IMG/VR virus record: IMGVR_UViG_3300035698_008372
Span: 64,001 to 128,000 of that record
From: a virus
DNA length: 64,000 bases
Direction: 5' to 3' (one strand)
The translations under genes were made by a program, and so were the position numbers. Each line of letters starts with the position of its first letter. Position 1 is the first letter of the stretch. Positions 7,486-35,779 of the stretch are shown piece after piece. The notes beneath the pieces were generated by a model that made no database searches, was not told where the DNA came from, and was given only the letters and a program-made list of their open reading frames with translations.

Positions 7486-7517
7486 AAAACACCCAAAATA
7501 AAAGGGTGTTTTTCTTT
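7486..7517 (+). terminator. intrinsic terminator closing the early block
   Basis: AAAACACCC-loop-GGGTGTTTT followed by T-rich tract. Confidence 0.6.
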
Positions 7518-7623
7518 GCCTGCTTACTATATATTAATGTGAAAAGAAACACAGGTTGTATGAATTAAATATAACTAATTAAACATTAACGAATGAGCAT
7601 TTAAACACTTAGGAGAAACAAAA

Positions 7624-8388
7624 ATGGCCGATATTAATGCATTAAAAAAACGTCTAGAACAGCTAGAATCAACAAATCACCGTGTAAACAACCTCTGGAA
7701 ACCATCTTCCGGAAAAACCCAAATCAGACTCGTACCTTATAAAATGGATCATGATAATCCATTCATTGAGTTACTTTTTCATTATGACTTAGGTGGCAAG
7801 AACTACTTGTCTCCACTGTCATTTCAGAGACCCGATCCAATCGAGGAATTCTCTAAGAAGCTGCGGGCTTCAGGAGATTCAGAAGGTTGGAAACTGTCTA
7901 AGAAACTTAGTGCTAAGATGAGAACTTATGTTCCAATCGTGGTACGTGGTGAAGAAGATCAGGGTGTAAAATTCTGGGGTTTTGGAAAAACAGTTTACCA
8001 AGAACTGCTCGGATTCATGTCTGACCCAGACTACGGTGACATTACCGACCCAACAAGTGGTCGTGATGTAGTCGTGGAATTCAAAACCGCGGAAGAAGTC
8101 GGTGCGAGTTTTCCAAAAACTAACATTCGCGTTAAGCCAAATGTTACACCATTAACCGCCAATAAGGCACAACTGGATAACTTCTTGGAAAATCAAAAAG
8201 ATGTCCGCGAAATTTATCAGGAACTTTCTTATGATGATTTGGCAGAGGCTCTCAATGATTACCTTAGCCCAGATGCAGAGGAAGAATCTGATACAGCCGG
8301 AGACGGTATGACAAAATCTCAAATGCAGGAACATGTTGAAACTGCTTCCATTGATAATTTCGATGACATTTTTAACAAGAAAAACTAA
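7624..8388 (+). CDS. single-stranded DNA-binding protein (gp32-like)
   Basis: LWKP..G...IRLVP, NPFIELLFHY, KFWGFGKTVY, DITDP..GRD, acidic tail; SD AGGAG. Confidence 0.85.
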   Translation: MADINALKKRLEQLESTNHRVNNLWKPSSGKTQIRLVPYKMDHDNPFIELLFHYDLGGKNYLSPLSFQRPDPIEEFSKKLRASGDSEGWKLSKKLSAKMRTYVPIVVRGEEDQGVKFWGFGKTVYQELLGFMSDPDYGDITDPTSGRDVVVEFKTAEEVGASFPKTNIRVKPNVTPLTANKAQLDNFLENQKDVREIYQELSYDDLAEALNDYLSPDAEEESDTAGDGMTKSQMQEHVETASIDNFDDIFNKKN

Positions 8389-8402
8389 ATAATAAACGAT
8401 AC

Positions 8403-8434
8403 GGGGAGACTTCACAGTCTCCCCATATTATTTT
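8403..8434 (+). terminator. hairpin/terminator after gp32
   Basis: GGGGAGAC-TTCACA-GTCTCCCC then T-rich. Confidence 0.7.
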
Positions 8435-8445
8435 AGGAGACGCAA

Positions 8446-9564
8446 ATGAGAGATAGAGACGAATTAGCCTCAATGATCGCGGATTCGATTAACAAATCAT
8501 CCGCCGAAAAATCCGCTTTCTTTTTAGATAGCGAAGAATCACCCACAGATGTAACGGATTGAATTTCCACTGGATCATCAGAACTAGATTTAGCGATATC
8601 AAATATGCCCAACGGGGGAATACCCGTGGGTAGAATCACTGAATTTAATGGATTGGAAGGTACTGGCAAAAGTCTTGTCGGTGCTCACATCTTGGCTAAC
8701 GCCCAGCGTAAAGGTGGGGTGGCCATATACATTGATACTGAAACTTCAGTTAGCCCACAATTTTTGACAGCCATTGGAGTGGATGTTAAGAACATGATTT
8801 ATGATCATGTGGAAACAGTTGAAGAGATTTTTGAACACATTGAAAATATTGTGACAAAGGTTAGGGAACAAGATAAGGGCAGACTGGTTACAATTCTTGT
8901 GGACAGTATAGCCGCAGCCAGTACAAAGGTTGAAATGGAAGCCGATTTTGATAAGGATGGTTGGGCAACAAGCAAAGCCATTATTATCTCAAAGGCTATG
9001 AGAAAAATCACACAAATGATTGGTAAACAACGTGTCGCATTGGTTTTCACAAATCAATTGAGGCAGAAGTTGGGTGCAATGTTTGGTGACCAATGGACTA
9101 CTTCTGGTGGAAAGGCATTGCCATTCCATGCATCAGTTAGAGTTAGATTAAAGAACGCTGGCCGAATAAAGGTTGGTACTGGTACAAAAGAACAGGTCGT
9201 TGGAATGAAAATTAAAGCACAGGTAATCAAGAATAGAATGGGTCCGCCTCTGAGGCAGGCCGAATTCAACCTAAGTTTCGCTTCTGGAATTGATGACATT
9301 GGGAGCTGGATAAGAATTTTATCCGCTCATAAGATTGTCAAACAGGCCGGAGCTTGGTACACCATCGAGTACGAGGATAAAGAAATAAAATTTCAGGCAA
9401 AGAAATTTGAAGAGGTTTTAGAGAAAAATCCCAAATTGGAAAAATATCTATACGATCAAATATGTGAAAAAACCATATTGAAATACAGAAATTCTCCAGA
9501 CGAGCCGGTGGTATTGGATGCCGAAGTGGAAGAAATTGAAGAGATGTTGGAAGACGACAGTTAA
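8446..9564 (+). CDS. recA: RecA/UvsX recombinase, with in-frame UGA(Trp) at 8560
   Basis: SD AGGAG + ATG 8446; reads PTDVTD*ISTGSSELDLAIS into GRITEFNGLEGTGKS, IDTE, VDSIAA, FTNQLR, TSGGKALPFHASVR. Confidence 0.93.
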
Positions 9565-9665
9565 TCTTCATCGGACTTGGGGCATTTTTGCTTTTTAGGT
9601 TGTTACTCCAAAATACATACATAAATATTAGAAGTTAAGAATGCCCCTTTTTTAGAAAGGTGTAA

Positions 9666-10739
9666 ATGAACAATAAAACATTACAACGGATACTGGATCA
9701 AGTTCAGAAGGAACATGACAATGCAGATGATCTGGAATATAATAGCAACGTGTTGATAGTCGATGGACTAAATACATTTATCAGGGCCTTTTCGGCCGTA
9801 CCCATGACAAATACAAATGGGGCTCATGTCGGTGGAATCATCGGATTTTTGAGGTCTATAGCATATACTGTCAAAACATTAAATCCCACTCGGCTGATAA
9901 TCACATTTGATGGCAAGGGTGGTTCGGTGCGCCGTAGAGAATTGTATCCAGAATACAAAGGAAAACGGAAAGTATCAAAATTAAATAGAGCGGATGCATT
10001 CAGTACCGCTGAGGACGAACATCAGTCGATGATGGAGCAGTTGAAAAAGACTGTTGATTATTTGGGGACACTTCCGTTATCACTGATTACGGTGGAGAAT
10101 ATTGAGGCTGATGACACAATGGCATATATTGCCAAGCAGGTTTTGACTGATAGTAAAATCACATTAATGAGCACTGACAAAGATTTTCTACAACTTGTAA
10201 ATGATAGAATATCGGTGTGGTCACCTACCAAAAAAATACTCTATACTCCAGAGGTAATCAGGGCTGAATATCAAATACCACCAAATAATTTCCTAGCATA
10301 TAGGATTATGGAAGGTGATGTATCTGATAATATTCCAGGTGTCGGTGGAGCCAAAATCAAAACAATCATAAAGAGATTCCCAGATGTATTGGATGATTCA
10401 AAGAAATTGAATGTTGATGATTTGATAGAATATGCTAAGGGTCAAGACACCAAATTGAAAGTGTATGACAATGTTATTAATAACAAAGAGCTATTGGAAT
10501 TGAATTGGAAATTGATGCAACTGGATGAGGTGGTTATTAGTAATACCGCCAAATTTCATATACTGAGTGTGGTCGATAGGGATCAACAAACCAAGTTTAA
10601 TAAATTACAATTTGAGAAAATGTTTATTAGAGACCAACTGCACCAATCCATACCCAATCTGGAAACATGGTTAAACCAGTCCTTTTTAACATTGGACAAA
10701 TTCGTGCGAGAACATAATGGGAAGAAAAAAGAAGTATAA
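9666..10739 (+). CDS. 5'-3' exonuclease / flap endonuclease (PolI N-terminal, T4 RNase H-like)
   Basis: IVDGLN, FDGKG, YPEYKG.R, EADD, STDKDFLQL, GDVSDNIPGV. Confidence 0.92.
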   Translation: MNNKTLQRILDQVQKEHDNADDLEYNSNVLIVDGLNTFIRAFSAVPMTNTNGAHVGGIIGFLRSIAYTVKTLNPTRLIITFDGKGGSVRRRELYPEYKGKRKVSKLNRADAFSTAEDEHQSMMEQLKKTVDYLGTLPLSLITVENIEADDTMAYIAKQVLTDSKITLMSTDKDFLQLVNDRISVWSPTKKILYTPEVIRAEYQIPPNNFLAYRIMEGDVSDNIPGVGGAKIKTIIKRFPDVLDDSKKLNVDDLIEYAKGQDTKLKVYDNVINNKELLELNWKLMQLDEVVISNTAKFHILSVVDRDQQTKFNKLQFEKMFIRDQLHQSIPNLETWLNQSFLTLDKFVREHNGKKKEV

Positions 10740-12547: not shown

Positions 12548-13645
12548 ATGGTAACTTTTAAATTATCGGATAAATTTATAGATGGGTTCAAGCGCAAGCG
12601 GGCACCCTTCGGTTTCAATGGGTTAGGGGCCCTAGTATATATGAGGACATATTCCAGAATAAAGGAAGATGGTTCAAATGAACAATGGTGGGAAACAGTA
12701 CAGCGTGTAGTTGAAGGTACATATAGCATGCAGAAAAACTGGATAGACGAACAAGGTCTTGGATGGAACCCATGGCAGGCACAGAGGTCTGCACAGGAAA
12801 TGTATGAGCGTATTTTTGAAATGAAATTTCTACCACCCGGACGGGGTCTGTGGGCAATGGGCACTGCTATCACTGAAGAAAAGGGATTGTATGCGGCATT
12901 GAATAACTGTGCATTCGTATCCACCGAAAATTTGAAAGACGATTTGGCCAAACCATTCACGTTTCTAATGGACGCTTCCATGTTGGGAGTCGGTGTTGGA
13001 TTTGATACAAAGGGGGCAGGGCAACTTATTGTCAAAGGCCCTAATGTGGATAGACCACCAGAAAAGTTTGTAATCCCAGATTCCCGTGAGGGTTGGGTTG
13101 ATGCCATGAAATTATTGATCGAGAGCTATTTTCTTGGTACTTCACCTATGGATTATGATTATGATACAATCAGGCCAGAGGGAGCACCAATAAAGGGGTT
13201 CGGCGGCACTTCAAGTGGGTACAAACCACTTAAAGCTGCTATGGATGAAATATCCAAAACACTAGATAAAAATGTTGGGGCACCTATTACAATAACCACA
13301 ATAGTTGATATTATGAATCATATTGGTAAATGTGTGGTGGCCGGAAATGTCAGACGCTGTTTACCAAATCACTATGAAGTTCAAACGGAAAATGGTTTCA
13401 AATGTATGAGTGAACTTACATCGGGAGATATGATAAATACAGCAGGAGGTTTGCGAGAGGTTAATGATGTCATAGATAGCGGAAAACAGAAAGTGTTGAA
13501 AATTAAAACGATGAACAATACTGAATATGAAGCTACTGAAAAACATACATTATTGGTATATAATCAGAAACTAGGCTTTAAGTGGAAAATGGTAAAGGAT
13601 ATTGATTCGGAGTTAGATTTTTTAGTTAAACCCAAAAATAAATAA
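12548..13645 (+). CDS. nrdJ: class II (B12) ribonucleotide reductase part 1 + N-intein 1 (13358-13642)
   Basis: YMRTYSR, FLPPGRGLW, ALNNCAF, GVGVGF, VVAGNVRR then CLPNH...ATEKH (intein blocks A/B), stop TAA. Confidence 0.92.
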   Translation: MVTFKLSDKFIDGFKRKRAPFGFNGLGALVYMRTYSRIKEDGSNEQWWETVQRVVEGTYSMQKNWIDEQGLGWNPWQAQRSAQEMYERIFEMKFLPPGRGLWAMGTAITEEKGLYAALNNCAFVSTENLKDDLAKPFTFLMDASMLGVGVGFDTKGAGQLIVKGPNVDRPPEKFVIPDSREGWVDAMKLLIESYFLGTSPMDYDYDTIRPEGAPIKGFGGTSSGYKPLKAAMDEISKTLDKNVGAPITITTIVDIMNHIGKCVVAGNVRRCLPNHYEVQTENGFKCMSELTSGDMINTAGGLREVNDVIDSGKQKVLKIKTMNNTEYEATEKHTLLVYNQKLGFKWKMVKDIDSELDFLVKPKNK

Positions 13646-13711
13646 AATATGAAGCGGTTAAGAATAATGGATACCGATTTAAATTAGATGTATATTAATA
13701 GGAGAATGATT

Positions 13712-14458
13712 ATGTATGGGATAGAAGATTTCAATTTGGAAGATTTCAATTTAATTTCGATTATGGAAATAGTCGATGAAAATAAATATGTTCAAACGAT
13801 GGACATAGAGGTTGCGGACAAGCATCATTTCTTTGTACGAAATCCTGAATACTCGGATGAATGTATTGTATCACACAATACAGCCGAAATTGTATTTGGT
13901 GATCCTGAGAATCAGGAATATTTGGACTTAAAGGATTACGACGTGAATCCATATAGGGAAGAATTTGGGTGGACATCGAACAATTCTATATTTGCCGAAT
14001 TGGGCATGGATTATACTGATGCTTGTAAACGTGTTGTGAAAAATGGTGAACCGGGATTTGCATGGCTTGAGAATATGCAGGGTTACTCACGTATGAAGAG
14101 CGGTAAAGACTACAAAGATAGACGTGTAAAAGGTGGAAATCCATGTGTTGTTGGTGATTCAATTATTACTACTGATAGAGGTAGACTTAGAATGGATGAA
14201 TTAGTTGAACGTGTAAATTCAGGTGAAACCATAAAAGTTATGTCTTTTAATGAACAAACATTAACAACTGAATTTAATGTTATTACAAAAGCGTGGATGA
14301 GTAAAAAGGATGCTACTGTATTGACATTGGAAATTGAGGAAAATGACCAAATGTTTAAATTGACATGTACCCCCGACCATAAAATATATACAACTAATCG
14401 AGGATATGTTGAGGCTAATGATTTAACTGGGGAGGATGATATAAAAATAATTACATAA
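13712..14458 (+). CDS. nrdJ: RNR part 2: C-intein 1 (to 13879) + 88-aa extein + N-intein 2 (14144-14455)
   Basis: TMDIEV..KHHFF...VSHN|TAEIVFG...TSNNS...NGEPG...GGNP|CVVGDS...CTPDHKIYT; SD AGGAG before ATG 13712. Confidence 0.92.
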   Translation: MYGIEDFNLEDFNLISIMEIVDENKYVQTMDIEVADKHHFFVRNPEYSDECIVSHNTAEIVFGDPENQEYLDLKDYDVNPYREEFGWTSNNSIFAELGMDYTDACKRVVKNGEPGFAWLENMQGYSRMKSGKDYKDRRVKGGNPCVVGDSIITTDRGRLRMDELVERVNSGETIKVMSFNEQTLTTEFNVITKAWMSKKDATVLTLEIEENDQMFKLTCTPDHKIYTTNRGYVEANDLTGEDDIKIIT

Positions 14459-14526
14459 TTCGTTTGTATATGGTATTTATTTTTGATATTTATAATAAAG
14501 AAACACTCTATATAAAGGAATGAACT

Positions 14527-15582
14527 GTGAAAACATATTGTGAAAAAAAGAACGGAAAAATTAAATTTGGAGATACTAATCATATTAGTTACGTGGGTCA
14601 CTATACAAACAATAACAATAAAACATATTATTTGCGTAGCAAGATTGAATTCGTGGTGGCTAGATGATTAGATATAAAAAATCTTAAATTTTTATATGAA
14701 TGCAAAATATATATAATAAATTCAAAAAATTATAAACCCGATTTTTTCCACACTGTAAATGATAAAATCAGAACTATTATAGAAGTAAAACCAGATAAAC
14801 AAACGGCTCTGGAATATTATTCTAAATATAACGAGTATTTTAAGAATATAGGAATTCGGTATGTAGTTTTATGAGAAAAACACATACATCAATTAATACG
14901 TAAAAATAATTTACAAGATGAGGTACTAAATTGAATAGACTATAGCATCACGAATTATAAAGTTCCCGATATGAGAGGGAAAAATAATCCTAGATATGGA
15001 ATGAAAACATCAGCAACTACTAAAAAGAAGATAGGTGATAAGACCAGAGAAAGATGTAAGGATAATGAGTATATTGATAAATTGAGTACCTCTATTTCTA
15101 AGTTCTATAATACGGACATGGGACTAAAACGAAGAAATGAAATTTCAGAGTTAAGAAAACGTGAAAACGTAGAATTCTGGAAACGGAAAAATCATGATGA
15201 CCCACTTACTACTGCTATATGTAAAATATGTGGTGATTTATTTAGATATAGAGGTATTAGTGAAAGTGGTCGTGTAACTTGTAGAAAAAATGGATGTACT
15301 ACAAAATATAATAATAGTATTGGAATTCCTCGAAAACCATTATCTAAAAAATCAAGTATTAGCTCATATAAAACAAGACTGTTAAACGGTGGTAATAAAA
15401 TGAAATTAACTGAAAACTATAAAGATTGAAACGAGAAAATTAACATGTTAAAGAAAACGTATAATATTCCAATGACGTTTGGTATGAATGAAAATACCAT
15501 TGTCAAATATTTTGGAAATATAAACACCTATATAAAGGAGATAAAAAAATATGGGAAAACTAATAAGAACGATTTTACATAA
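14527..15582 (+). mobile_element. free-standing homing endonuclease (TnsA-like PD-(D/E)XK + NUMOD3-like), 4 in-frame UGA
   Basis: From GTG 14527: YYLRSKIE...YKPDFF...IIEVKP, then GKNNPRYGMKTSATTKKKIG; TGA at 14665, 14872, 14932, 15427; ends TAA 15582. Confidence 0.8.
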
Positions 15583-16767
15583 AACTGTGGAGGATGTATT
15601 CGATTTAACCGTCGATGCTGTCCATAATTTTATAGCCAATGGTATATTGGTACATAACTGCCTTAACTACTAAGTCTCGGGGCAGTATAAATTTCTCCTG
15701 ATTGACTTGGAAGGTGAGTATACACCGACAGGGCGCAAGGGTAAAGCCAGCGTGAGAGACTGAGCGGAGAAACTTCAAAATGAAGATGCGACAGTCCACC
15801 TTATGAATCGAAACTTCTGATACGATTTGTAAACAGCGAACAAAGTTTAGAATCCTATGAATTGTGTTGTCTAGTTGAAACATTTCCAGACAATCATACG
15901 AGCAAAGAAGATTATTTGCGAACATTGAAATATGCTTATCTTTATGCAAAGACAGTGACACTTGGAAAAACTCATTGGCCAGACACAAATAGGGTTATGC
16001 TGAGAAATCGTAGAATTGGTACATCGGTATCTGGTATTGCCCAATTCATTACCAATCGAGGTCTGGGTGTACTCAGGGATTGGTTGGAAAGTGGGTACGA
16101 TGAGATTAAGAAATGGGATGAGATGTATTCAGATTGGTTATGTATTCAGCCCAGTATAAAAATTACAAGTGTGAAACCTAGTGGGACAGTATCACTACTG
16201 GCCGGATCAACTCCAGGATTACATTATCCAGAGAGTAGGTTCTACATCAGGCGTGTACGACTGGCAAAAAGTAGTAAACTGATTACACCACTTGAAAACG
16301 CTGGATACAAAATAGAACCGGCTTATGGTTCTGAAGAAAGCACAGTTGTGGTGGAAATTCCCATTGATGAGGGTGATGGAATTAGGACAAAGAAGGACTT
16401 AACGATGTGGGAACAATTGGCCCTTGCGGCGTTTATGCAACGGCATTGGGCTGACAATGCTGTTAGTGCCACGATCACGTTTGATCCGGAAACCGAATCG
16501 GATCAACTCCCATTCGCTTTGAACTATTTTCAGTATCAATTAAAAGGCATTTCATTTCTACCTAGAGTGGAAAAGGGGGCCTATAGACAAATGCCGTATG
16601 AGGAAATCACTGAAAGTGAATATGATAATATGAAAACTAATCTAAAATATTTGAGTTTAATTCACATTGAAGGGGAAATGGCAAACCCAGAAAAATATTG
16701 TGGGAATGATACGTGTGAAATTGATGCCGAGTGGGCACAAGTTGAAGATGAACAGGATGAAAAATAA
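15551..16767 (+). CDS. nrdJ: RNR part 3: C-intein 2 (15551-15658) + C-terminal extein, interrupted by a group I intron
   Basis: MGKLIRT...VFDLTVDAVHNFIANGILVHN|CL^EQSLESYELCCLVE...RNRRIG...TSVKPSGTVS; C-terminal CGNDTC. Confidence 0.9.
15664..15836 (+). ncRNA. compact group I intron (173 nt, no ORF)
   Basis: 5' exon ends in U, intron ends in G. P1 ACTGCCT/GGGCAGT with U.G; P3 TTTCTCC/GGAGAAA; P7 GACTG/CAGTC; P8 CTTCA/TGAAG. Removal restores C-L-E-Q frame. Confidence 0.9.
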
Positions 16768-17816: not shown

Positions 17817-17889
17817 GCGGTTGAGGTGTAAGGGGATTTGCATGTCGGCTTTCCAGCCGGAGGAGTTGGTTCAAAACCTTCCAACCGCT
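17817..17889 (+). tRNA. atypical tRNA-Gly-like (UCC in a 6-nt loop, mismatched T-stem)
   Basis: GCGGTTG/CAACCGC acceptor, U73; TCGGC-TTTCCA-GCCGG; GGTTCAAAACC; A at position 8; no CCA. Confidence 0.7.
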
Positions 17890-17900
17890 CTATTACAAAT

Positions 17901-17973
17901 GCGATTGAGGTGTTCAAGGGGAGCACGTCGGTATTCCATATCGAAGGAGTGGGTTCGAATCCTGCCGATCGCT
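17901..17973 (+). tRNA. atypical tRNA-Gly(UCC)
   Basis: GCGATTG/CGATCGC, U73; TCGGT-ATTCCAT-ATCGA; GGTTCGAATCC; A8; no CCA. Confidence 0.85.
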
Positions 17974-17984
17974 CTATTAAAAAT

Positions 17985-18057
17985 GCGATTGAAGTGTAAC
18001 AGGTAAGCACGCCGACATACCATGTCGGAAGAGTGGGTTCGAGTCCTACTGATCGCT
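17985..18057 (+). tRNA. atypical tRNA-Gly(ACC)
   Basis: GCGATTG/TGATCGC, U73; CCGAC-ATACCAT-GTCGG; GGTTCGAGTCC; A8; no CCA. Confidence 0.85.
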
Positions 18058-18084
18058 CTATTAATGCAAGGAAAAAAATGTTAT

Positions 18085-34699: not shown

Positions 34700-35155
34700 G
34701 ATGGCTGAAGAGAGAATCAAAATAAGCTGGAATGAAATCGAACCGGGGATGATTTTATCATTCGTATATGGTGAGGGTGCCAGAAAGAAATGGCGTACTT
34801 GTATGGTACTAACCGACCCATTAGATTCTAGGGCTTGGCTCACGCGCAAGGATGGATCAAAAAACAAAGTGGTACATACGCTCCAGCTAAGAAAACAACA
34901 AAAATTACAATTACGTGGGACCAAGCTCAGAAGAGTATTGAATCATTTTGGCGGTGTTATCCGTGAGGAAATGGAAGGATTCAGACACAACCGCATGATT
35001 ATTGGTGACATCAAAAACTCATACCCAATGCTCAGTCCGATGCTCAAAGGTACTGATGTATATAGGATATTGGAAGTAGATAAACTAAAGACTACAGCGT
35101 TGTATCTTATAGATTATAAATTTCCAAGAGACATTAAAATACAAAGGAGATACTA

Positions 35156-35779
35156 ATGATATCATTTTCAATTTTATCACATAATGAAGGTGAAGATTTA
35201 GGTAAATTATTACATCAGATTGCCACCAAAAGTGATTTGGATTATGAGTTTGAAATTGTCATAGTGGATGATTTTAGCACAGATAGTAGGACAATGGAAA
35301 TATTAGAAGAATATGGTAATGTGGATAATGTGCATGTATTCCAAAGGAAATTGGATATGGATTTTGCCGGACAGAAGAATTTTGCCAATTCAAAATGTGT
35401 GGGAGAATACATATTTTCAGTCGATGCCGATGAATATTTCCCTGACAATCTTATTGCAAATCTGTATGAATTGGTTAAAATGAATGGTGATATTGATTTA
35501 ATGTGAGTCCCCAGGATTAATCTTGTGGGGGGTATTACAAAAGAACATATTGCCAAATGGGGTTGGAATGTGAATGCACAGGGTTGAATAAATTTTCCCG
35601 ATTATCAGGCCCGCCTTTTTAAGAATTCTCCAGACATAAAATGGAAAAATAAGGTTCACGAAGTTATCGAGGGCGCGATGACTATAAGCCGACTACCAAC
35701 GGAACAAGATTGGTGTTTGGTACATAACAAACATATAGATAAACAAGAAAAACAGAATGAATTTTATGAGACCATTTAA
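35156..35779 (+). CDS. GT2 glycosyltransferase (UGA at 35504, 35585)
   Basis: IVDDFSTD, FAGQKN, VDADE, LM*VPRIN, QG*INFPDYQARL, WKNKVHE. Confidence 0.88.

Follow-up and report, generated by a model that had tools for sequence, protein, structure and literature searches.

How can an essential enzyme be made from a gene that selfish elements have interrupted three times? The question is raised by a ribonucleotide reductase (RNR) locus in the IMG/VR virus record IMGVR_UViG_3300035698_008372, a 140-kb record of which bases 64001-128000 were analysed (64,000 nucleotides, here called the window). Under the standard code, this region consists of three open reading frames (ORFs) that jointly tile the monomeric B12-dependent ribonucleoside triphosphate reductase (RTPR) of L. 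leichmannii (PDB 1L1L). With IntN and IntC as the N- and C-terminal halves of a split intein, the gene order is extein 1-IntN1, then IntC1-extein 2 (88 aa)-IntN2, then IntC2-Cys-(173-nt intron)-extein 3. All parts named in a preliminary description of the locus, drawn up from the bare sequence, were found where it had placed them, including the part boundaries, the intein halves, the intron and a 66-bp gap. Based upon the comparisons below, this is probably a working class II (adenosylcobalamin, RTPR-type) RNR gene that three independent selfish elements have broken, and whose pieces would be rejoined by two protein trans-splicing events and one RNA self-splicing event. The parts are as follows:

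12548..13357 (+): extein 1, class II (RTPR-like) RNR, 270 aa, ending in GNVRR; matched by Pfam RNR_Alpha (1.2e-42) and RNR-II_ins_dom; counterpart of 1L1L residues 6-320 in the alignment
13358..13645 (+): IntN1, 95-aa N-half with Cys1, block B TEKH and a TAA stop; a profile of 6 copies matches the gp41-1 intein 6QAZ (E=1.5e-6)
13646..13711 (+): gap of split 1, 66 nt, with the Shine-Dalgarno sequence AGGAG at 13700-13704 and a 30-nt remnant of a homing endonuclease gene, HEG1, at 13669-13698
13712..13879 (+): IntC1, 56-aa C-half ending in IVSHN, net charge -10; block F (DIEV..HHFFV) and the HN end do not vary among 5 copies
13880..14143 (+): extein 2, 88 aa, from Thr+1 (TAEIVFG...) to GGNP; residues 57-144 of ORF2 align to RTPR 319-407
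14144..14458 (+): IntN2, 104-aa N-half with Cys1, block B TPDH and a TAA stop; matches the NrdJ-1 intein 8UBS (E=2.5e-16)
14508-14519 (+): 12-mer CTATATAAAGGA before the HEG2 start, with an identical copy at 15528-15539 before the IntC2 start; no further exact copy occurs in the 64 kb
14527..15582 (+): HEG2, a free-standing homing endonuclease gene of 351 codons with a GTG start and in-frame TGA at 14665, 14872, 14932 and 15427; its last 32 nt overlap the start of IntC2
15551..15658 (+): IntC2, 36-aa C-half ending in LVHN; Pfam Intein_splicing (5.3e-8, profile positions 130-155); matches DnaB mini-intein C-termini (E=3e-6)
15659..15663 (+): end of exon 1, the Cys+1 codon TGC (RTPR Cys408) followed by CT; the final U makes the U.G pair of intron helix P1
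15664..15836 (+): group I intron, 173 nt, ORF-less, with P1 and P3-P9 and no P2; in-frame TAA at its bases 9-11, terminal G at 15836
15837..16767 (+): exon 2, whose first C completes a Leu codon; 309 codons (EQSLESYELCC...) to a C-terminal Cys pair and stop; aligns to RTPR 410-701

Three reductase polypeptides and two split inteins

Together the three exteins span 1L1L residues 6 to 701. They retain the equivalents of Cys119 (inside extein 1 in the 1L1L alignment), Asn406, Cys408, Glu410, Cys419 and the C-terminal Cys pair, the last visible as C-x4-C in the exon 2 translation. After conceptual assembly, the product has the features of a monomeric class II RNR of the RTPR type: RNR_Alpha and B12 insertion domains, NNC, NPCLE and ELCC. 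Part 1 (12548-13645, 365 aa, extein 1 plus IntN1) aligns to RTPR up to GNVRR, and Cys1 of IntN1 follows at 13358, which is the GNVRR/C boundary previously proposed. Part 2 (13712-14458) is a single uninterrupted 248-aa ORF of 747 nt, and its anatomy, its RTPR alignment and its conserved splicing residues bear out the suggested order of IntC1, an 88-aa extein with Thr+1, and IntN2. Extein 3 totals 311 aa, with the frame of exon 2 open from 15784.

Scanning viral contigs with the middle piece yielded 73 related loci, 68 of which are uninterrupted at both sites. In these 68, extein 2 is joined directly to both flanks and the sequence reads GNVRRTAEI and GGNPCLEQ(S/T)LE, exactly the junctions NVRR-TAEI and GGNP-CLEQ that had been predicted; for example, taking out intein 1 leaves GNVRR+TAEI, the host sequence. 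Because the 68 uninterrupted relatives encode it, the unusual Leu that separates Cys from Glu is a native feature of this RNR clade, not an artefact of a misplaced splice site. Neither these junctions nor the open HEG2 frame described below can be put down to chance.

Both protein-level interruptions have the hallmarks of split inteins: every copy of each keeps Cys1, TxxH, a terminal HN and the +1 nucleophile. The single IntN1 sequence matches gp41-1 weakly (E=0.001) and scores 21.5 bits with Pfam PF14890, under the cut-off of 35.8, while Cys1 directly after GNVRR and T-E-K-H are invariant in 6 copies of this half. IntC1 displays the pattern of blocks F and G and has a short insertion ahead of the terminal SHN, and Thr+1 comes next. 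For intein 2, Cys1, T-P-D-H and VHN are conserved in 3-4 copies. This intein sits directly before the thiyl-radical cysteine (GGNP/C...HN/CLEQ), a classic RNR hot spot, and the radical Cys serves as its +1 nucleophile. The +1 Cys of IntC2 had been equated with the cysteine of the NPCxE motif, and the alignment agrees, since it matches RTPR Cys408. The site is not the one after the thiyl Cys used by NrdJ-1-type insertions; here the lone Cys of NPCLEQ takes the +1 position. Loci L001-L005 have, at the same NP/C point, a contiguous intein that contains an HNH domain (Pfam), and by its position intein 2 is an allele of the common 'before-Cys' RNR site.

Could the pieces instead be the remains of a dead gene? 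In that case mobile-element strikes would have killed the RNR, the pieces would stay unassembled, and the phage would use a host or other RNR. The gene does carry three interruptions, one endonuclease gene has already been deleted, and the record is incomplete; moreover, some multiply interrupted phage nrdA genes have been argued to be degenerating (Dwivedi et al., 2013; PMC3653736). Yet all RNR catalytic and intein splicing residues are intact, and no piece contains a frameshift or stop. The ratio of nonsynonymous to synonymous substitution rates (dN/dS) is 0.04-0.2 for the exteins across lineages 62-96% identical (0.04-0.18 for extein 2, indicating purifying selection). It is 0.09-0.17 for IntN1, 0.09-0.31 for IntN2, which is conserved in L089, L095 and L096, and 0.09-0.31 for both inteins together over the same lineages, again indicating purifying selection. 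The same layout recurs in at least four diverged assemblies, and compensatory changes have kept the pairing of the intron core. We therefore consider decay improbable.

A second alternative accepts three working pieces and dispenses with protein splicing. The intein halves would then be affinity domains that hold the pieces together non-covalently, and such assembly, reported for Aeh1 NrdA-a/b (PMC3045599), provides a precedent. A degenerate adapter, however, would not be expected to conserve Cys1, TxxH, HN and the +1 Thr and Cys. In addition, judging from the 1L1L alignment, splicing failure would leave a 140-aa insert in the finger loop of the active site, separating Pro407 from the radical Cys408, which is hard to square with catalysis. 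This alternative seems very improbable to us, and trans-splicing is the reading we favour.

Trans-splicing imposes a condition on the middle piece. Its order, IntC-extein-IntN, is that of split-intein circular ligation of peptides and proteins (SICLOPPS), which cyclizes the extein when the halves are compatible. Because of this order, the two inteins must be orthogonal if the middle piece is not to cyclize, a need that the preliminary description had also recognized. Sequence comparison of IntN1 with IntN2 found no collinear similarity, and no alignment was obtained between IntC1 and IntC2. The net charges of IntC1 (-10) and IntN2 (-7) make both acidic, which argues against their cross-pairing; IntN1 and IntC2 are near neutral. 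The solved relatives gp41-1 and NrdJ-1 have been used jointly as an experimentally orthogonal pair for stepwise (recursive) protein assembly (Pinto et al., 2020; PMC7090010). Orthogonality of these two inteins, which appear to come from unrelated families, is thus well motivated by how the middle piece is laid out, by the pairs' lack of mutual similarity and by the behaviour of their nearest solved relatives.

A group I intron at the catalytic cysteine

The third interruption is in the RNA. A group I intron had been noted 2 nt past the Cys codon, and the sequence indeed reads TGC, CT, then a 173-nt insert, after which C GAA CAA resumes the frame to give C-L-E-Q. The 5' end of the intron lies five bases past the protein-splice junction of intein 2, and exon ligation would produce TGC CTC GAA, or CLE, as in relatives. 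In P1 the exon sequence ACUGCCU pairs with GGGCAGU, with U.G at the splice site. A 3-bp P10 and the terminal G are visible, and the intron holds an element near the classical J8/7-P7 consensus.

A pattern scan for the intron core found it on 20 viral contigs. We aligned 11 distinct cores, wrote out P3-P4-P5-P6/6a-P7-P8 with the P3/P7 pseudoknot, and counted pairs. Across these 11 homologues 97.2% of cells are paired, against 38-44% in slid controls, and 16 of the 32 pairs have changed on both sides, which none of 500 shuffles reached. For example, the pair that closes P7 across the bulged base (74-119) is G-C, A-U or U-A among homologues, and compensatory changes are seen in P5, P7 and P9 of the introns at this site in L089 and L095.

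Removal of the intron from the RNA would be required, because exon 2 has no start codon 5' of its conserved EQSLESYE and the essential Cys is in exon 1. Unspliced RNA would encode a 40-aa IntC2-CLNY peptide (15551-15673) that could in principle compete for IntN2. This 40-aa ORF is present on 19 contigs, the longest of 158 kb, which suggests that the phage recurs in public data and that its genome is probably larger than 140 kb; a search with the 40-aa product returned nothing but itself. Two bases of the final intein codon with which the intron guide pairs are different in alleles that lack the intein, and the intron thus seems to be adapted to the allele with an intein.

We propose the following assembly. 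The region would be transcribed, probably as one unit, and the 173-nt intron would excise itself, joining IntC2-Cys-CU to C-GAA-CAA so that the third ORF becomes IntC2 plus the 311-aa extein 3. Three polypeptides would then be made: extein 1-IntN1 (365 aa), IntC1-extein 2-IntN2 (248 aa) and IntC2-extein 3. IntN1 and IntC1 would splice extein 1 to extein 2 via Thr+1, while IntN2 and IntC2 would splice extein 2 to extein 3 via Cys+1, the thiyl-radical cysteine. The product would be a 669-aa enzyme containing GNVRRTAEI and GGNPCLEQ. The earlier claim that the active site needs two trans-splicing events and one self-splicing event fits a single RNR gene that carries two split inteins plus a group I intron, with invariant splicing residues and purifying selection; the activities themselves we infer from these sequence patterns.

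Several points weigh against this proposal. First, self-splicing, trans-splicing, orthogonality, and the activity and target of the endonuclease are predictions. Second, the intron is invisible to Rfam: the group I model (RF00028) gives no match at E<=1 in the window, and no match for this intron family came from the locus, from the window as a whole or from eight related loci (homologues at E<=0.01), although a different intron in L082 and L086 scores 113-115 bits. Since Rfam is silent, the intron call rests on our own alignment and pair counts; the miss weakens the label of a typical member and leaves the structural case standing. The minimum free energy fold of the intron region alone is unremarkable (z = -1.15). 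Third, 173 nt is unusually small, and a protein helper may be needed. The small Azoarcus intron, at about 205 nt, is larger, and no confirmation of a size record was found in the literature searched. Fourth, three of the four intein halves score below the curated Pfam cut-off for inteins, and a PDB sequence search with IntC1 alone found no relative among solved structures. Fifth, charge complementarity backs orthogonality only partly, and charge does not exclude the IntN1/IntC2 cross pair. Finally, only this RNR copy was detected in the 140-kb record, but the record is about 71% complete (CheckV estimate), and a second, intact RNR may lie elsewhere in the genome.

Related introns occur in other phages. 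With blastn against a phage collection, no close relative of the whole locus was found, and matches were confined to the intron core in the Roseobacter phage CRP-118 and a short RNR stretch. The RNR gene of CRP-118 carries a homologous 172-nt intron whose insertion point is four bases upstream and follows base 1 of the Cys codon (L074:2473-2644, OR420741.1 about 35054-35225). That intron is unannotated; the RNR is annotated as two coding sequences (CDSs), gp44 and gp45, and the annotated start of gp45 is too far downstream. Podovirus-like RNR genes (L082:838-1085; L086:1524-1746, minus strand) have the compact intron plus a second, canonical group I intron, the one that Rfam scores at 113-115 bits. 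Five loci with identical RNR regions (L076, L077, L081, L088 and L094) have several hundred extra bases between the intron core and P7, possibly an ORF in P8. In L078, L079, L083, L087 and L092, the same core with a longer P6 or P9 is flanked by exons that are not the RNR NPC motif, which indicates that the intron family is also present in other host genes.

Mobile cassettes and the UGA-containing endonuclease gene

Each split represents a fractured-gene cassette, in which a free-standing homing endonuclease gene lies between the halves of a split intein; cassette 1 has lost its endonuclease, and cassette 2 keeps HEG2. We built a presence/absence series from protein searches and contig look-ups:

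L102 and L105: split 1 present, with a 316-aa HEG1 gene; no split 2 (one 458-aa IntC1-plus-rest protein), no HEG2, no intron
L089: no split 1, no HEG1; split 2 present, HEG2 intact (349 aa), intron present
L095: split 1, HEG1, split 2, HEG2 and intron all present
L096/L097: split 1, HEG1 and split 2 present; HEG2 present over the length that the contigs cover, which stops short of the intron
P0006/P0009 (protein records): IntC1 present; IntN2 present, cut at the contig end
This window: split 1 present, HEG1 deleted; split 2, HEG2 and intron present

The two splits are found separately as well as jointly, and by this pattern they are independent mobile cassettes. IntN2-HEG2-IntC2 and the intron occur together in the window, L089 and L095. 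The coexistence of single-split variants in metagenomes (L089, L102, L105) also makes it conceivable that the double split is an artefact of reads merged from such variants. In contrast to what a chimera would produce, IntC1 and IntN2 lie in one 248-aa ORF. Double-split middle pieces recur in separate samples at 99, 85, 70 and 67% identity, among them the independent assemblies of L095 (85%), L096/L097 (70%) and P0006/P0009 (67%), and the 40-aa IntC2 exon-1 product is on 19 contigs. An assembly chimera is extremely improbable. A second, independent type of double split is suggested by P0071 (Logan ERR13166144, a protein record), an RNR middle piece of 370 aa that has another IntC at NVRR/T, an uninterrupted NPCLEQ and an IntN after KPSG; double splits seem to arise repeatedly.

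The first split had been described as a 66-bp gap with no endonuclease. The gap stands, but its content can now be specified. It aligns with the last ~10 codons and the stop of a DUF7487 homing-endonuclease gene (HEG1) located at the same place in L095 and L096, and HEG1 lies between the split 1 halves in L095, L096 and L102-L105. Because the gap aligns to the 3' end of this gene, HEG1 must have been deleted in the window. By the definition of Dassa et al., split 2 is a complete fractured gene, and split 1 has its endonuclease gene in relatives, with deletion here.

The second split was said to contain a UGA-containing endonuclease. HEG2 is present as described; what has changed is the meaning of its UGAs, which would be Trp codons of a partly recoded code and not damage. 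Our first reading of HEG2 as a nonsense-mutated pseudogene was dropped after comparison with L089 and L095. In such a reading HEG2 would be dead and the split-intein cassette immobile, which is compatible with a working RNR. The gene has four in-frame TGAs under the standard code, TGA ends many genes of this genome, and, a point that also counts against our own reading, no UGA-suppressor (UCA) tRNA was found with ARAGORN under default or relaxed settings (the relaxed run gave only noise) or with Rfam. Against it, each of the four TGAs has a TGG/Trp counterpart in the alignment with L089 or L095. In the L095 copy, three Trp columns are written as TGA, including one that is TGG in the window, and two columns with TGA in the window are TGG; such swaps are the pattern expected of synonymous codons. 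The HEG2 frame has no TAA or TAG, where shuffles give a mean of 27 and a minimum of 13, and its 351 codons contain no frameshift. Its dN/dS is 0.15-0.30, and 0.18-0.30 past the first TGA. Finally, in the portal gene of this phage, Pfam matches span TGAs: when read through, a T4-type portal protein and an HNH intein are joined across five TGAs. Death by nonsense mutation is unlikely, and HEG2 looks intact and dependent on UGA decoding as Trp. The portal gene lies outside the window (G000:C1:8085-11264; L100:86-3262); its HNH intein is contiguous and holds four of the five in-frame TGAs, and mobile-element ORFs of this phage seem enriched in TGA.

HEG2 appears to combine an N-terminal PD-(D/E)xK nuclease, a NUMOD3 motif and a Cys-rich region. 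The Pfam matches to TnsA-like_N (E=0.001, below cut-off) and NUMOD3 are weak, and PHROGs and PDB sequence searches with HEG2 gave no match. In an AlphaFold2 model, the N-domain has a predicted local distance difference test (pLDDT) score of 70-85, and its best structural matches are TnsA (Z 7.9 over 129 aa), Vsr (5.4) and I-Bth0305I (5.2), all under Z 8. E41, D72 and E86-x-K88 are invariant in 3 HEG2 copies. With moderate confidence, the modelled N-domain would be a restriction-endonuclease-like core. A common DNA-binding module is hinted at by the similarity (E=7e-5) between the NUMOD3 stretch and its counterpart in the HNH intein of the allelic L002 copy.

The codon usage of HEG2 differs from that of its host gene. 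The RNR pieces have 18 TGG and no TGA, whereas HEG2 has one TGG and four TGA (Fisher ~6e-4, hand calculation). A speculative proposal, which we hold only tentatively and think somewhat doubtful as a whole, is that HEG2, with UGA in 4/5 of its Trp codons against UGG in 18/18 of those in the RNR pieces, is translated only when UGA-to-Trp decoding is on, a code-based timing gate, and that the locus also encodes the first enzyme known from nature in which two orthogonal split inteins ligate three polypeptides. In T4, intron endonucleases are controlled by late promoters and hairpins that sequester the ribosome-binding site (RBS), and the proposed gate in HEG2 would play the same part. If it is real, the selfish parts of the locus would be held in check by the genetic code.

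The window has 38% G+C, and nearly all its genes are on the plus strand. Upstream of the RNR locus lie genes for a 5'-3' exonuclease and a DnaB-type helicase; downstream are a dUTPase-like gene and then three odd tRNA-Gly genes. These three tRNA-Gly-like genes are in tandem at 17817-18058; ARAGORN calls two, and the Rfam score of the third is below threshold. A Shine-Dalgarno sequence precedes every downstream piece of the RNR gene, and the repeated CTATATAAAGGA could be a promoter or RBS element that travels with the cassette. A sigma-70 promoter and terminator scan found no terminator-like site on the plus strand within the locus, and its yield was at chance level (26 found, 26.3 expected).

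Other genes of related phages are broken as well. In L103:1-2579 a recA gene is fractured likewise, with a RecA N-part bearing an intein half, a 325-aa MTES_1575-like gene and the remainder of RecA. L105:1061-2935 and 7487-10393 hold a DnaB helicase with an intein (624 aa) and a PolB gene that is in two pieces, which suggests that this phage group is unusually rich in gene-breaking elements.

Comparison with known systems

Fractured genes, the coexistence of an intron and an intein in one phage RNR gene, and the status of RNR as a favourite target are already known. The nearest relative of split 2 is the NrdJ-1 locus, described among fractured genes that have one split per gene, in which the NrdJ inteins of the GOS data sit one residue after the thiyl Cys with Ser+1 (Dassa et al., 2009; PMC2677866). 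There, as here, a split intein interrupts a phage-like class II RNR and has a free-standing endonuclease gene lying between its two parts, and IntN2 is homologous to NrdJ-1. However, the insertion here lies one residue upstream (NP/C, Cys+1), the endonuclease is of a TnsA-like PD-(D/E)xK/NUMOD3 type with UGA-coded Trp, and a second split intein and an intron share the gene. Split 1 resembles instead gp41-1 (6QAZ), to which IntN1 is distantly related, and the endonuclease-less gp41-7 locus, which likewise has no intervening endonuclease gene (Dassa et al., 2009). Unlike in the gp41 loci, the host gene is an RNR and not a helicase, the site is NVRR/T with Thr+1, and the lost gene is a DUF7487 endonuclease whose deletion is documented by the 30-nt remnant.

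The RNR of T. erythraeum contains several inteins and introns. In the B. subtilis phage SPbeta, bnrdE combines a group I intron with an intein in one RNR gene (as cited in PMC3653736). In both systems, as here, the two kinds of self-splicing element pile up at conserved RNR motifs. Their inteins, however, are contiguous and splice in cis within one polypeptide, whereas this locus would need two trans-splicing events, with the intron 5 nt from an intein junction. The pairing of an ORF-less group I intron with an adjoining free-standing endonuclease gene recalls collaborative homing in cyanophage psbA/F-CphI (Zeng, Bonocora and Shub, 2009, as cited in PMC2814812), but here a split intein lies between the two, which may move together. 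As in the T4 td, nrdB and nrdD and Twort nrdE introns (RF00028), the intron has a P1 U.G, a P3-P8 core with a P3/P7 pseudoknot, a J8/7-P7 element, a terminal G and an RNR host gene. In contrast to these, it is missed by RF00028 at E<=1, lacks P2 and measures only 172-173 nt, and its family is known from 20 viral contigs. A compact family of ~173 nt that the models miss leads to phage RNR genes being mis-annotated as two CDSs, as in CRP-118.

The closest match to the overall design is engineered. Multi-fragment ligation with the gp41-1/NrdJ-1 pair also uses a middle block with the IntC of one pair and the IntN of the other (Pinto et al., 2020; PMC7090010), but the present locus is natural, its inteins have diverged, and its splicing is predicted. 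A literature search of incomplete coverage found no paper on a natural gene with two split inteins, which is absence of evidence only. What appears new is the presence of two split inteins of different families in one gene, with three polypeptides to join; a group I intron that lies, at the catalytic cysteine, five bases away from an intein junction; a parallel in nature to the orthogonal gp41-1/NrdJ-1 design together with a polymorphic cassette series; an intron family invisible to Rfam; and UGA-coded Trp concentrated in the endonuclease. The two inteins, with their different +1 residues (Thr and Cys), are a candidate natural orthogonal pair for three-piece protein ligation, and the contrast between a UGA-rich endonuclease and a UGA-free host gene offers a testable link between stop-codon recoding in phages and homing-endonuclease control. 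The series of alleles (none, split 1, split 2 plus intron, both, contiguous intein, endonuclease lost) displays the steps of the 2009 gene-breaking model in living sequences. The locus is a more extreme variant of the fractured genes of Dassa et al., and it indicates how far selfish elements can fragment an essential gene that is still kept under selection.

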